The notes: generated by a model not told the origin, from the letters alone. Numbered from the stretch's first letter, positions 17,649-22,885 are shown. The stretch: 64,000 bases of DNA from Parcubacteria group bacterium LiPW_15 (GCA_007375645.1 VMER01000001.1:134256-198255), one strand, 5' to 3'. Program-made: numbers and translations.

Positions 17649-17719
17649 TGCGGGGTCGTCTAACGGTAGGACATCGGCCTTTGAAGCCGAGTATTTTGGT
17701 TCGAGCCCAAACCCCGCAG
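17649..17719 (+). tRNA. tRNA-Gln (anticodon UUG)
   Basis: Hand-folded cloverleaf. Acceptor UGCGGGG/CCCCGCA with U1-A72, D stem GUCU/GGAC, anticodon stem UCGGC/GCCGA with loop CUUUGAA, T stem UUUGG/CCAAA with loop TTCGAGC. CCA is not encoded. Confidence 0.75.
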
Positions 17720-17837
17720 CAAGCGAGCAAAGGCGAAGCGCAGTGGCCAGGCCAGCAGGCAGTGGCTACAAGTATGACCAACTCATGATAGGTTATCCCG
17801 CTCGAGGAGCGCAAAGGTCGTCATATCAAACATCAAT

Positions 17838-18071
17838 ATGCTTACCGAAGAAGAAAAGAGTTTTTTGACAGGTCAATTCTTAAACCCCACTTTTGGCGAG
17901 GTAAATACGGAGGATCAGGAGAATTCGACGACATTTTCTTTTGCTCCTGCAAATCCTCAAAAAGAAGTTGAATCAATTTCAGAATTTCTTGCAAAATTCC
18001 CTCGTTGGGAACTAACAAAAGAAACTGATTCAGCAGGGAAAAAATTTGTACAGATAACACTAAAGAAATAA
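17838..18071 (+). CDS. Hypothetical protein
   Basis: 77-aa acidic ORF at the island edge. Confidence 0.35.
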   Translation: MLTEEEKSFLTGQFLNPTFGEVNTEDQENSTTFSFAPANPQKEVESISEFLAKFPRWELTKETDSAGKKFVQITLKK

Positions 18072-18095: not shown

Positions 18096-18119
18096 CCACT
18101 CGCCTCTGAGTGGTTTTTT
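18096..18119 (+). terminator. Rho-independent terminator
   Basis: Hairpin CCACTC-GCCTCT-GAGTGG followed by TTTTTT. Confidence 0.6.
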
Positions 18120-18255: not shown

Positions 18256-18993
18256 TCAGTAGCTCAATAAGCTTTTCGCTTGTATCTCCTTGATTCCATT
18301 TGGAAGCAGATGGTAAAATCCATCCTTAACTGCAATAAATTTTTCAACCCTCATTGATTCAACGGTTTTATTGAAACGACTTCGATTGTTATCTTTCGTT
18401 TTCGAAAAAAGGAATTCAATATCCCGTTTTTGTTTACTGAGCAATACTAATATCTCTTGCTTTACAAGGAGGTCTTCCCTCGCTATAAATTCTTCGCCCT
18501 CAATTTCAAAAATAACTGGATAATTAGGGACGGCAATTTTATCAATAATAGCTTGGGCTTCATCCATGGAATAATTCCCGTAGACTCGGATTAACTCTGC
18601 CATAATCCAATTAGCGGAGGACAGAACAAAGCTTGCGTCAATTTTATTTGCACTGAATCCACCGAGATGTGCAACATTCCGATTGTTTCTAAAATCGAGG
18701 AGTAGTTTTGTTAAAACAGTAACTTTTTGACGAACATGCTCATCAATGACTGGGTCGTTAGTGACTTTATTAATAATGGTTGTTTTCTCTGCTGCTTTAA
18801 TATCCTGACCAGGCGGAGTGATGGGTATATCAAGCAAATGTTGGAAAATCCTTAAAACTGCCTCGGCAAATCTGCCTCCATTAAGCTGACTTGGCCCGCA
18901 ATCATTCAGCTGAAAGCGACGTTTGATCTCCACATATTCTGCGAAGAGACTGTCCTCAAGATTGTCGGGTATGGTTTTAAGACTTTTCGCCAT
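18256..18993 (-). CDS. Hypothetical protein with HEPN-like Rx6H motif (possible abortive-infection/DUF4145-like)
   Basis: The motif RNNRNVAHLGG fits the HEPN R-x4-6-H pattern. Start chosen at MAKSLKT. Island gene. Confidence 0.4.
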   Translation of the reverse strand: MAKSLKTIPDNLEDSLFAEYVEIKRRFQLNDCGPSQLNGGRFAEAVLRIFQHLLDIPITPPGQDIKAAEKTTIINKVTNDPVIDEHVRQKVTVLTKLLLDFRNNRNVAHLGGFSANKIDASFVLSSANWIMAELIRVYGNYSMDEAQAIIDKIAVPNYPVIFEIEGEEFIAREDLLVKQEILVLLSKQKRDIEFLFSKTKDNNRSRFNKTVESMRVEKFIAVKDGFYHLLPNGIKEIQAKSLLSY

Positions 18994-19411
18994 TCTTTTT
19001 AAGAATATCTTTCCATTGTTTTCCAAGAACATAAAATCCCCGAGTATTTTTTGCTGCATCAGCCCAACCGTTTTCTTTCGCTCTGGTTGAAAAGATCGAG
19101 GCATAGGGTTGCCCGATAATACCCGAACAGCTTTTCCAAATAGTTTTAATCTGCAATAAGTCTATGGGAACAGACTCTTTCCCGCCCGCCAAATACGCCA
19201 GAATAAGAACAAAGAACTCTTGACCATTAAAGCCGGGAGAATACTTTTTAATGAATGCTCGCTGATTCAATGAGAAGTCTAAACCATCGACACTCAGGTC
19301 TTTTATAGGTTCATTCTTTTTCCCAAAAACCGTTGCCTCAAGCCTTTCGATTCTCTCTTTGATTTCTGCGATTTCTTTTTCCATTTTGATTATTTGAAGA
19401 TTTCTTTCCAA
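18977..19411 (-). CDS. Hypothetical coiled-coil protein, paralog A
   Basis: 144 aa. Shares the pattern coiled-coil ... DFS.NQRAF.KK ... F.L..AY ... W...L with 19390-19821 and 19823-20233. Confidence 0.5.
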   Translation of the reverse strand: MERNLQIIKMEKEIAEIKERIERLEATVFGKKNEPIKDLSVDGLDFSLNQRAFIKKYSPGFNGQEFFVLILAYLAGGKESVPIDLLQIKTIWKSCSGIIGQPYASIFSTRAKENGWADAAKNTRGFYVLGKQWKDILKKNGEKS

Positions 19412-19821
19412 TTCGGCCTAAGGGAGTAAAGTGAATTTTTCGGAGACACGATCCAATCATTTTCCCTAGAGCGTACCGCAAATGTAGGTGAAAACTTCGG
19501 CTTGATTATGCTTTTCATCTTCGACCACTCTCCCTGTATGTCGGTCAGCGATGCCTCTTCGGTGCCCTTTTTATTAACGAAGTAAGCAACCATAAGGGTA
19601 AAAGTCTTTGGACCAGACATATCCTTCGCGTGCTTTTTGAAGAATGCTCTCGCTTGCATAGAAAAATCTATGTCCGAATCGACTGCGAGGCGAGCTGGAT
19701 TTTTAACGATCGCTGCTTCATTTTTATCATCTTCCGGCATAGACTCATTAAGAACCCGTAAGCATTTTTCGGCTGCATCCTTTATTAGTCGTAGTTGTCT
19801 TTCTAGTTCAGTTTTATTCAT
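19390..19821 (-). CDS. Hypothetical coiled-coil protein, paralog B
   Basis: 143 aa with clear similarity to paralog A. Confidence 0.5.
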   Translation of the reverse strand: MNKTELERQLRLIKDAAEKCLRVLNESMPEDDKNEAAIVKNPARLAVDSDIDFSMQARAFFKKHAKDMSGPKTFTLMVAYFVNKKGTEEASLTDIQGEWSKMKSIIKPKFSPTFAVRSRENDWIVSPKNSLYSLRPNWKEIFK

Positions 19822-19822
19822 T

Positions 19823-20233
19823 TTAATTTTTATTTAATTGGTCGATAAAACCTTCGCCCGAATCAGTGAGGTGCCAGGCCTTTTTCATCTCCTTTTTATC
19901 TTCTGCCTCCACCAAATATCCCTTATCAATGTTCTTGTTGATTTTGTCATTCAGGTTTGACGGGATAACCTCCTTTGCTAGTTTATACACCTTGGTTAAA
20001 TCATCGATATTGAACGGACTCGTTCCTAGCTTGTGCTCGATAAAATAACAAAGAACAAGTGTTTTTTGAACTTCGCCCGATGGTTTTTTTTCGATGAGAA
20101 ACTCTTTAGGAGAAATCTGTCTTTGAATGGATGTCGAAGCAGCTTTGTGAGGCGCGCCCAACAGCTTTTTTTCTAACGCCAGAAGTCGTTCCTCGTGATC
20201 TGCCAGCTTCCTTTCTATTGAAGTGTTATCCAT
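19823..20233 (-). CDS. Hypothetical coiled-coil protein, paralog C (more divergent)
   Basis: 136 aa with the same architecture: an N-terminal coiled coil followed by a KTLVLCYFIEHKLG segment. Confidence 0.45.
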   Translation of the reverse strand: MDNTSIERKLADHEERLLALEKKLLGAPHKAASTSIQRQISPKEFLIEKKPSGEVQKTLVLCYFIEHKLGTSPFNIDDLTKVYKLAKEVIPSNLNDKINKNIDKGYLVEAEDKKEMKKAWHLTDSGEGFIDQLNKN

Positions 20234-20242
20234 GATTTTGAT

Positions 20243-20647
20243 TTATTGTTTTTTTGAGTTTTTCTCGACGACCTCTTTGATTCGATAATTTGGCACGTAA
20301 TAACCCAATTCTTTGTTTTTTTTTATTTTTTTGGCATCAAACAGTTTTTTTAGTGTGCTCTTTACACTTCCCTCAGGAATGACACCCAAGTTCACAATCT
20401 GACCTTGATTCAGGCCATCGGGCGTACCGTCTTCCAATAAGGAAAGTGCCTTGGAAGCCAAGAGTATGATTTCCACTTTCTCTATATTATTATCCACTTT
20501 TTCAAACGCGGGCAGGAAACCGATTTGTTTCGATGCTCGATCAAAAACGACATACGGCTTAAGGAAGGTAGCGACGATTTGGCGATCTATCGACTTGATA
20601 TCATCTGCAAAAAGGTCGGCGAGTGGATCTTTTGGTTTTTGGTTCAT
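20243..20647 (-). CDS. Hypothetical protein
   Basis: 134-aa ORF, first gene of the minus-strand island cluster. Confidence 0.4.
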   Translation of the reverse strand: MNQKPKDPLADLFADDIKSIDRQIVATFLKPYVVFDRASKQIGFLPAFEKVDNNIEKVEIILLASKALSLLEDGTPDGLNQGQIVNLGVIPEGSVKSTLKKLFDAKKIKKNKELGYYVPNYRIKEVVEKNSKKQ

Positions 20648-20707
20648 GTTTTTACTATTTTTATAATTCTACCGCTATCGACTACAGAGTCAAGTGTATA
20701 GCGAATG

Positions 20708-20798
20708 TGAACTCGCTGTCAAATCCCAAAGAATCGCCAATGGACATTCGCCTCAAATATAATTTCATCGGCTGAGTAGCGCCCAAATCTAAAAGAGG
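20708..20798. repeat. 91-bp direct repeat, copy 1
   Basis: Identical base-for-base to 21088-21178. Confidence 0.9.
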
Positions 20799-21087
20799 CC
20801 ACTACCCTTAGTATCCCATAGTATATCTAATTATCCTATTAAGCACATCGGAGGGGAAGACTGATTGTGGGAGTGAGTAAAATTACCAAAAGATCAATAA
20901 AATACGGCCTTTTTCAGAAAGGAGCAAGGGATTGATTTTGGTTCAGTTACGCTAGATGGTTGATGAATTTATGATAATTACCTCGATTATCACGTTAATA
21001 CTGTGTTTTGACCATATAAATAAAGGGTTATCCCATTTAATGGATAGGATTAAATACTATAAATACAACAATACTCCAATATTCTTT

Positions 21088-21178
21088 TGAACTCGCTGTC
21101 AAATCCCAAAGAATCGCCAATGGACATTCGCCTCAAATATAATTTCATCGGCTGAGTAGCGCCCAAATCTAAAAGAGG
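21088..21178. repeat. 91-bp direct repeat, copy 2
   Basis: Identical to 20708-20798. The copies are separated by 289 bp of AT-rich DNA. Confidence 0.9.
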
Positions 21179-21396: not shown

Positions 21397-22182
21397 TTAT
21401 AGGCGCCAGGGATTCGGCTTCAGAATCGGAAGTAGTCTTTTCCGAAAATCGAGTGCCAAGATGCTGAAGAAAACGTAACGTTCCGTTTGCTCTAACGACG
21501 CAAGCAGGAATTCCCCGTTCGGAAATGGTGATTCCGGACTCAGTAAGAATCTGCCCTCCTCGGCTTCGCAGGCGATTTTAAACGCCAGGTCTTTTCGGAT
21601 ATCGGCGTCCGTCAGGTCGAGGCCAGAATCTTCTCGAACCCAAGCCGCATGTCTCTCGAAATCAATTTCAAATGCCGAGGGAGAGACAAATTTAGACGTA
21701 TTCGCCTGGACCTCTTTTGCCGCGACGGGACGACCCCCGAGCACTTCTTCTTCCCAATCCAACAGGATGATGCTTCCAGCCGCCGGAGATTTATCAATCT
21801 GAGCCGAGAGCATTGTCTTGTATTGAGCTTCTACATTCGGACAAACTCTGCCGGTATCGATATAGGATCTGTTTAGGGTAATCCACCAATTAACCGTGGC
21901 TCCGTTTCCGGAGAACAGACCTATGATTTTAGGAATGAGCTCTTGAATCAGTTCCAATTCCGTTTTTATTGGTGAAAACTCCCCACCCTGCGCTTTCAGG
22001 CGTTCTTCCAAGTCCTTCGCAACGCACCACTGGGTCAGAATCTGAACCGGTCTGCCATTCAGAATACAGTCGTTAACGTAATCGTCTGCCCACTCGTCTA
22101 TTTTCTTGTTATTTGCTCTAACGAGTTTATTCTGCATTCGCAGGGCAGCCATGATTATCTGAGTCTGTTTCAACCTCATGGT
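21397..22182 (-). CDS. Hypothetical protein
   Basis: 262 aa from the ATG at 22182, which has a GGAAGGAG Shine-Dalgarno. The longer upstream extension would overlap tRNA-His and is rejected. Confidence 0.45.
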   Translation of the reverse strand, partial: TMRLKQTQIIMAALRMQNKLVRANNKKIDEWADDYVNDCILNGRPVQILTQWCVAKDLEERLKAQGGEFSPIKTELELIQELIPKIIGLFSGNGATVNWWITLNRSYIDTGRVCPNVEAQYKTMLSAQIDKSPAAGSIILLDWEEEVLGGRPVAAKEVQANTSKFVSPSAFEIDFERHAAWVREDSGLDLTDADIRKDLAFKIACEAEEGRFLLSPESPFPNGEFLLASLEQTERYVFFSILALDFRKRLLPILKPNPWRL

Positions 22183-22306
22183 TTTTTTCTCCTTCCATTG
22201 TAAAAGTGCTCCTGATCTCCCAAGGAGAACAGACTTAATTTGCACAAATTTATATTTGAGCCGATTAAGCCTGCTCTTCTTTATTTTTCTTTTTTTATAG
22301 CTCATG

Positions 22307-22379
22307 GGTCCTGGACGGGACTTGCACCCGCAACCAATGCCTTCACGGGGCACCGCTCTTCTATTGAGCTACCAGGACC
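22307..22379 (-). tRNA. tRNA-His (anticodon GUG) with encoded G-1
   Basis: Hand-folded. G-1 pairs with discriminator C73. Acceptor GUCCUGG/CCAGGAC, D arm GCTC-AATAGAA-GAGC, anticodon loop CCGUGAA, T arm GCGGG-TGCAAGT-CCCGT. Confidence 0.75.
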
Positions 22380-22570: not shown

Positions 22571-22885
22571 TCAAGACAACCCTCTCCTTATTTGGATAGG
22601 ATTATGATGATGAAGGCGATCAATGATAGTGCGATAACCGCCAGCTTTGCCGTTCAACCATTTAGAAACCCTGGCGACCGTGGTCGAGCTTAGACCGGTT
22701 TTCAGTCCGATCGCAGAGTATGAGACATTTTCGCTTAGAAGTTCCGCCGTTTGTAGTCGGTTAGCAAATTCGGTTATTTCTTTTTCGGTCATTAAATCGC
22801 GCAAAAAACGCCTCGCCTCATCCGGTGTTTTGATAGCAAATATTGCCTGAATCAATCTATCGTTTTCGGTGCTGGTCCAGTTCAT
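22571..22885 (-). CDS. TrpR-like DNA-binding protein (YerC/YecD family)
   Basis: 104 aa matching the YerC/YecD Trp-repressor-like fold pattern. Confidence 0.65.
   Translation of the reverse strand: MNWTSTENDRLIQAIFAIKTPDEARRFLRDLMTEKEITEFANRLQTAELLSENVSYSAIGLKTGLSSTTVARVSKWLNGKAGGYRTIIDRLHHHNPIQIRRGLS

Follow-up and report, generated by a model that had tools for sequence, protein, structure and literature searches.

The component folds of the locus described here, HEPN and the winged helix, are known, as is the logic by which a nuclease effector is accompanied by small DNA-binding partners. HEPN toxins occur in toxin-antitoxin (TA) and abortive infection (Abi) systems, examples being the HEPN-MNT minimal proteins AF0298, TM0613 and TT1696 (MNT, minimal nucleotidyltransferase) and AbiV, while in the CoCoNuT type IV restriction systems the CnuE protein couples a winged helix and coiled coils to a HEPN effector, for which phospholipase D (PLD) nucleases serve as alternatives (PMC11090510). 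The locus lies in a stretch of 64,000 nucleotides (nt) from Parcubacteria group bacterium LiPW_15 (GCA_007375645.1 VMER01000001.1:134256-198255), the whole of which is called the window below, and consists of five minus-strand genes, labelled D, C, B, A and H. H has a HEPN domain with an invariant catalytic motif, and A, B and C are small winged-helix proteins whose families are linked to H across many genomes. The preferred reading, which is a tentative one and is given somewhat less than an even chance, is that D-C-B-A-H form one operon encoding a TA-like or Abi-like conflict module, in which the partners would autoregulate the operon and hold H inactive.

The locus differs from the described HEPN toxins of TA and Abi systems in that H has a fused C-terminal winged helix, and in that the partners are coiled-coil winged-helix proteins, there being no MNT partner. 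The adjacent minimal nucleotidyltransferase antitoxin that defines HEPN-MNT (HepT-MntA) pairs was not found: A is a winged helix by fold, and neither Pfam nor NCBIfam places a nucleotidyltransferase domain in D, C, B or A. AbiV gives a weak Foldseek match to H (E 0.2), and the profiles of the Abi families (AbiV, AbiU2, AbiJ, AbiD/F) do not match it.

Operon layout and the HEPN protein

The five genes, for which protein lengths are given in amino acids (aa), are the following:

20243-20647, minus strand: gene D, first of the operon, 134 aa, LiPW15_177, with a family of its own (c4)
19823-20233, minus strand: gene C, 136 aa, LiPW15_176, 100% identical to TSC60298.1 (Parcubacteria group bacterium LiPW_15)
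19390-19821, minus strand: gene B, 143 aa, LiPW15_175
18977-19384, minus strand: gene A, 135 aa, LiPW15_174, TSC60296.1
18256-18993, minus strand: gene H, 245 aa, from M38 of a 282-aa open reading frame (ORF), 18256-19104

A, B and D are annotated as 'hypothetical'. An initial annotation, made from the sequence alone, had described C, B and A as three tandem coiled-coil paralogs beside a HEPN-motif gene, and their ORFs are present on the minus strand where it placed them, with the exception of the start of A. Nearly all of the 39 homologs of A that were found, which are mostly 133-137 aa long, begin at a methionine equivalent to M10, and this, together with the NCBI annotation of 135 aa, indicates that A starts at the ATG at 19384 and not at the TTG at 19411; H is likewise assigned to 18256-18993 because its homologs begin at M38. 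The genes are then separated by 9 nt (D-C), 1 nt (C-B) and 5 nt (B-A), and the true overlap is the one of 17 nt between A and H (18977-18993). The overlaps of 4-22 nt reported earlier were thus in error, and resulted from the wrong start being taken for A.

H has a HEPN domain at its N-terminus, which forms the four-helix up-down bundle typical of that fold, and a winged helix of the MarR/PadR-like kind at its C-terminus, with a beta hairpin between the two. Across 33 homologs, with identities down to 46%, its motif LLDFRNNRDvAHLGG keeps R102, N103, R105, A108 and H109 without exception, and the invariant R102-x6-H109 therefore corresponds to an Rx6H HEPN catalytic motif, within the range Rx4-6H. 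Bundle and motif together bear out the earlier description of a HEPN neighbour, and H is predicted to be an RNase effector. None of the Pfam HEPN-clan models detects H, a search of Pfam, PADLOC and NCBIfam at E up to 1 returned nothing save WH_III-A on its winged helix-turn-helix (wHTH) domain, and a profile search of the PDB with the H alignment returned nothing. The H family comprises 145 protein clusters at 90% identity and 412 metagenome loci; a single-protein scan of genome contigs gave two loci and no more.

Families and exchange of the small partner proteins

The relationship between A and B is evident from direct comparison (31% identity over 141 aa, BLASTP E 2e-20), and at the level of sequence their paralogy is real and goes well past coiled-coil bias. 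C shows no pairwise similarity to A or B by BLASTP (E 19 and 21), and likewise none to D. In order to compare families rather than single proteins, 80 metagenome loci with relatives of H were fetched (loci in other genomes are referred to below by L numbers) and their upstream ORFs were clustered, which placed C in a family of 38 members, A and B together in a family of 16, and D in a family of 15. An hhalign comparison of the C family with the A/B family gives a probability of 96% (E 4.5e-9, 130 columns), which falls only to 91% (E 1.1e-6) when the N-terminal helix is trimmed, while D and the 112-aa and 180-aa families of neighbouring proteins reach at most 11.6% in the same test. The link between C and A/B is therefore specific, and reflects neither coiled-coil bias nor a generic likeness among winged helices; it becomes visible only because family profiles were used, BLASTP being blind to it. 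The proposed kinship of the three proteins accordingly holds for A and B at the pairwise level and for C at the level of family profiles, but not for C in pairwise comparison.

The shared features that had been described divide in a similar way. The core motif DFS(L/M)(N/Q)RAF(I/F)KK...F(V/T)L(I/M).AY is present in A and B but not in C, which has a diverged counterpart of it, SPKEFLIEKK...TLVLCYF...KKAWHLT. The N-terminal heptad helices are confirmed in all three proteins, with hydrophobic residues at 6 of 6 a/d positions in A, 6 of 8 in B and 5 of 6 in C. In the AlphaFold2 model of A, the coiled-coil helix spans residues 2-20 and is joined by a disordered linker to a winged helix at 41-132. 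The winged helix-turn-helix fold of the MarR/PadR families is found in A, B, C and D; the profile of the D family gives weak matches to MarR-type wHTH structures (E 0.018-0.4; MJ223 0.018, MarR 0.022), always in the region 74-110, and the C-terminus of D is probably a MarR-like winged helix. The libraries do not register these folds: the Pfam MarR/PadR models match none of A, B and C, the A alignment (profile A1) has no match in the PDB at E up to 10, and no significant family was found for A, B, C, D or H in Pfam, PADLOC, NCBIfam or PHROGs, the single weak match of gene C in PHROGs being phrog_2475 (function not known, E 0.0033).

A, B and C are, as their alignments have it, ancient relatives (identities of 28-31% and about 15%), each with orthologs of its own in other genomes. 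Those of B have 82% identity in L093, 84% in L095, 58% in L012 and 53% in L011, and in L011 and L012 they occupy the slot beside H. The ratio of nonsynonymous to synonymous substitution rates (dN/dS), computed against the nearest orthologs, those of L093, is 0.147 for B, 0.170 for A and 0.040 for H; values of 0.04-0.17 indicate purifying selection, with the small proteins evolving faster than H, and rule out positive or diversifying selection. The phrase 'tandem diversifying paralogs' must consequently be given up, these being old genes with separate orthologs. That A and B arose by a recent tandem duplication in place is also ruled out, by their 28-31% identity, by the separate orthologs and by the mosaic of identities across the operon: D, C and B of the window resemble the cassettes of L011 and L012 at 53-69% identity, while A and H resemble cassettes of the type D-112-A-H such as that of L003 (A 71%, H 89%), whose D is just 33% identical. 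The B+A pair thus looks like the product of a fusion or recombination of two cassette types rather than of a recent duplication.

The association between these families and H was measured in 47 non-redundant H loci with sufficient upstream DNA. Immediately before H stands a gene of the C type in 23 loci, of the A/B type in 12, of the 112-aa family in 3 and of the 180-aa family in 1; it is unclassified in 3, and no gene was called in 5. The C family is therefore the commonest adjoining partner, and a C- or A/B-type gene adjoins H in 35 of the 47 loci, so that the association is not accidental; this gene and H for the most part overlap by 4 nt or leave a gap of 3 nt. A role of the small proteins as immunity components, as had been suggested, or as regulators is plausible. 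The cassettes are built as C-H, C-C-H, C-A-H, D-112-A-H, D-C-A/B-H, 112-180-C-H and, in the window, D-C-B-A-H, minimal two-gene C-H modules coexisting with forms of three to five genes. The five-gene form is intact in an independent metagenome-assembled genome (MAG), L095 (GCA_040960095.1; D 96%, C 95%, B 84%, A 92%, H 87%), and its B-A-H part recurs in L093. The earlier suggestion of variable specificity is correct insofar as the partner families are shuffled among cassettes, but the sequences themselves are not hyper-diversified. When 1.84 billion representatives were searched with one profile built from A, B and C together, 829 clusters (at 50% identity) matched with E<=1e-3 and 407 with E<=1e-10, and the listed matches are nearly all 125-155 aa long; ten sampled matches of this partner superfamily include no Pfam family, and the three distant members sampled all lie in the same kind of cassette.

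The modularity of the cassettes extends to the coiled-coil helix and to the effector. The 110-111-aa proteins encoded at L090 5685-6017 and L092 5682-6017 are winged-helix proteins of the 112 type which nevertheless carry the helix of the A family (LTRLEKAVFG and LVKLEHAVFG), the former matching the A-type LTRLEKAVFG helix by BLASTP with E 5.6e-4 (L090_5685); this suggests that the short coiled-coil helix may be a shuffled pairing module common to otherwise unrelated partner families. In L090 (6468-7208) and L098 (4438-5184), the slot of H is filled by a protein of 246-248 aa that is not an H, whose N-terminus matches the winged-helix profile of the A family (E 5e-12 and 3e-12) and whose C-terminal domain carries LHDRFxVVD-x6-GPS, from which we infer an HxR variant of the PLD motif HxK-x4-D-x6-GS; the PLD assignment stays putative because the match to Pfam PLDc_2 is weak (E 0.05).

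Taken as a TA-like or Abi-like module, the operon would function as follows. H would be a HEPN ribonuclease effector with a winged helix of its own, and presumably toxic. A, B and C would use their three-heptad N-terminal helices to pair with one another and/or with H, and their winged helices, which are basic in A and B, would bind an upstream operator and so autoregulate the operon. The small proteins, in this reading the obligate partners of H, would also neutralize it by keeping it inactive through direct contact, the gene adjoining H upstream being translationally coupled to it, and the RNase would be set free once partners are lost or titrated, as might happen when a phage infects the cell or when the element is lost. 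This reading is favoured because the upstream partner is coupled to H, because two-gene forms exist, because the distribution is patchy and mobile, and because the nuclease effector can be exchanged. It also draws on the paralogy of A, B and C, the winged-helix fold of A, the invariant motif of H, the close linkage in 35 of 47 loci, the restriction and toxin genes beside several cassettes, the palindrome and repeats upstream, and the purifying selection on the genes.

Several of the same data can also be accommodated by a sensing defence complex, in which the N-terminal helices would build a hetero-oligomeric scaffold (with D or the 112-aa or 180-aa proteins) whose winged helices sense foreign nucleic acid and activate the HEPN RNase or the PLD-like nuclease instead of only neutralizing it. 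Similar N-terminal helices on different winged-helix families in one cassette, as in L090_5685, speak for such a scaffold, as do the retention of several different winged-helix partners per cassette, all under purifying selection, and the persistence of the partners when the effector is swapped; restriction-modification (R-M) genes occur nearby, and CnuE, a wHTH protein with coiled coils coupled to HEPN or PLD effectors, offers a parallel (PMC11090510). The cassettes have, however, no NTPase or other obvious signal-transducing component, and the minimal C-H pairs resemble simple TA modules, so that this alternative, though the chief rival of the preferred reading, is considered rather unlikely.

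The upstream repeats and the genomic setting

The non-coding stretch upstream of D is 750 nt long and contains the following features:

20666-20722, minus strand: a pair of overlapping matches to sigma-70-like promoters, immediately before the start codon of D (consensus matches only)
20708-20798: proximal copy of a 91-nt perfect direct repeat, which on the operon strand stops about 60 nt before D begins
20972-20992: palindrome TGATAAT-N7-ATTATCA, between the repeat copies
21088-21178: the distal copy of this 91-nt repeat, placed 380 nt away from the proximal one

The -35 box of these promoter matches, TTGACA, falls within the proximal copy of the repeat. Both copies are also present in the independent MAG L095, by which an assembly artefact is ruled out, and six substitutions between the two genomes are common to both copies, while within a genome the copies have 0-2 differences; the shared substitutions indicate that the copies evolve in concert. 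In six loci (the window, L095, L012, L011, L009 and L032), the first gene of the cassette is closely preceded by direct repeat pairs or tandem units, with lengths of 64-300 nt and spacings of 300-470 nt. Outside the window they are located as follows:

L095 3650-3744 and 4029-4123: repeat pair
L012 3165-3228 and 3629-3692: repeat pair
L011 41-107 and 507-573: repeat pair
L009 3765-4458: repeat region
L032 2980-3458: repeat region

Loci of the D-112-A-H type are without such upstream repeats. The repeat sequences differ among cassette types, those of L011 and L012 having just the last 17 nt or so in common with the window, and the repeats of the window, L095, L011 and L012 all end in ATATTTGACAG..AGTTCA, which holds the -35-like TTGACA. 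The repeat pairs are possibly a duplicated promoter and operator. Part of the repeat core (TCGCCTCAAATATAATTT, 18 nt) recurs in inverted orientation at 22247-22264.

Upstream repeats recur in six loci; their sequences are unrelated from one cassette type to another, and within a genome they evolve in concert. This raises the alternative that they are the RNA antitoxin of a module like the type III TA systems: the repeats would be transcribed, the HEPN RNase would process or bind the transcript, and the small proteins would be accessories. This is very improbable. Repeats of 64-300 nt at spacings of 300-470 nt are unlike the known arrays of 34-36-nt units of the ToxI type; in the window there are two 91-nt copies only, 380 nt apart, which differ from the short tandem repeat array of ToxIN-like systems; the D-112-A-H cassettes lack repeats; and the TTGACA -35 box that ends each repeat fits duplicated promoter DNA better. 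The RNA of the segment between the repeats gives no fold signal (z 0.33) and no Rfam match, and the segment contains no convincing ORF, so that it is rejected as a structured RNA or coding sequence; as it has no residual similarity to the 5' end of D, its origin by decay of a copy of that part of the gene is rejected as well.

The palindrome TGATAAT-N7-ATTATCA occurs nowhere else in the 64-kb window, where 0.01 occurrences are expected by chance. Between the repeats of L095 (3840-3860), L012 (3319-3339) and L011 (203-223), these half-sites recur at the N7 spacing, around a spacer whose sequence varies. Such a pattern is typical of the site of a dimeric DNA-binding protein, and the palindrome is a candidate operator for a dimeric winged-helix protein. 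An operator-like palindrome beside a duplicated promoter region, and a winged helix in all five proteins, would also suit a purely regulatory island, in which the small proteins would act as transcription factors for a mobile or accessory element, while H, a HEPN protein without toxicity, would serve in RNA processing or regulation. The cassette has no cargo to regulate, however, and moves as a self-contained unit into unrelated contexts, while the invariant Rx6H motif and the exchange of HEPN for a PLD-like nuclease point to an effector function; a regulatory island is therefore held to be improbable.

The flanks of the cassettes in other loci include the following restriction and modification genes:

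L073, L090, L092: type I R-M
L008: MmeI-type IIG R-M
L003: type II R-M
L098: N6/N4 methyltransferase

AbiEii, the zeta and PemK toxins and serine recombinases flank some loci, and other loci have housekeeping flanks only (ribonucleotide reductase, GMP synthase, FtsH, UvrA). The McrB/C family is absent from the tally of the 25 most frequent Pfam families among 146 flank ORFs of 26 cassette loci. The cassette thus behaves as a small, self-contained mobile unit whose association with defence genes is moderate and not exclusive. An origin in phages or plasmids was rejected, since no relatives were found in IMG/VR contigs or GenBank phages, and one distant plasmid match only: the HEPN part of H matches a haloarchaeal 'hypothetical protein' of the Natronomonas pharaonis plasmid PL131 (NC_007427.1 2135-2515, 27.6%, E 4e-5). 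Two of the flanking regions have further features of their own. In L090, a Hypoth_Ymh (PF09509) gene lies directly downstream of the wHTH-PLD-like gene and the type I R-M genes directly upstream, and in L009 (165-3629) the ribonucleotide reductase gene beside the cassette has an intein-like LAGLIDADG homing-endonuclease insertion.

In the window, the operon lies in an island of low GC content (0.39 at 18-20 kb, against about 0.47 elsewhere), whose surroundings are as follows:

17649-17720, plus strand: tRNA-Gln, on one side of the island
17838-18071, plus strand: 77-aa ORF right after tRNA-Gln, convergent with H
18096-18113: likely terminator of the operon, a GC-rich hairpin that has runs of T on either strand and is located between the end of H and this ORF
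21397-22353, minus strand: 318-aa ORF whose 5' end overlaps tRNA-His
22306-22378, minus strand: tRNA-His, on the opposite side of the island
22571-22885, minus strand: 104-aa protein beyond tRNA-His with a Trp repressor domain (PF01371, E 5e-18), an ordinary neighbour

An Rfam scan found nothing beyond the two tRNAs. The 77-aa ORF has no family match and is not a cassette member in other loci. No match to the 318-aa ORF was found in Pfam, PADLOC, NCBIfam or PHROGs, and its overlap with tRNA-His implies that its real start is internal, for example at M58 (22182). A second low-GC stretch of the window, at 32001-34000 (GC 0.406, GC skew -0.127), might be another island.

Significance and comparison with known systems

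Several observations weigh against the reading of the operon as a TA-like or Abi-like module. A classical type II TA module consists of two genes, and a form with five is unusual. No profile of a TA or defence family matches significantly, the best match being PADLOC WH_III-A on the wHTH of H (E 0.0026). The candidate operator does not cover the proximal promoter, being situated some 325 nt upstream of D. The net charge of the winged-helix domain is +7 in A and in B, but 0 in C, which indicates that C may not bind DNA. Finally, with so many loci flanked by housekeeping genes, the enrichment of the cassettes in 'defence islands' is only moderate.

Candidate Phyla Radiation (CPR) bacteria have tiny genomes in which few defence or TA systems are recognized, and a conserved, unannotated HEPN cassette in these and other uncultured bacteria would add one such system. 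Because the partner family is large (829 clusters), uniform in size, unseen by domain libraries and tied to nuclease effectors, it should be a useful marker for further conflict systems. With their shuffled partners from four or five winged-helix families, their exchangeable effector, their concerted repeats and their conserved palindrome, the cassettes are also a tractable system in which to study how small DNA-binding proteins might control a predicted HEPN RNase. A more general proposal, which seems doubtful at present, is that they represent a widespread multi-winged-helix conflict system, in which the coiled-coil winged-helix paralogs are joined by their N-terminal helices into a hetero-oligomeric platform for nucleic-acid sensing that controls a swappable nuclease (HEPN-wHTH or wHTH-PLD-like), with the co-evolving duplicated promoter and operator as its switch.

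Neither these particular families nor the multi-paralog arrangement nor the exchange of effectors was found in the domain and defence libraries or the literature searched, and each of the known systems to which the cassette can be compared resembles it in part. The fold of the small proteins is that of MarR/PadR/AphA-type factors (also of TubR and the archaeal viral F-93), from which A, B and C differ in that they have neither sequence-profile membership nor the dimerization helices of that family; in place of the helical dimer interface of MarR and PadR, they are predicted to dimerize by the short N-terminal heptad helix, and they are genomically tied to a nuclease effector. The likeness to type II TA modules lies in the small gene of DNA-binding fold directly upstream of, co-oriented with and coupled to a gene of nuclease fold, in the two-gene C-H forms and in the patchy, mobile distribution, while the differences are that there are up to four different small partners here and that the putative toxin H has a winged helix of its own.

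The comparison with CnuE is close in some respects and not in others. No CnuH helicase (UPF1-like) or McrBC GTPase is found in or near the cassette, and the five genes encode no ATPase or GTPase domains; in H the order of domains is HEPN followed by wHTH, and the coiled coil resides on separate small proteins. The HEPN and PLD alternatives of the CoCoNuT systems are nevertheless mirrored here by the exchange of H for the wHTH-PLD-like protein.

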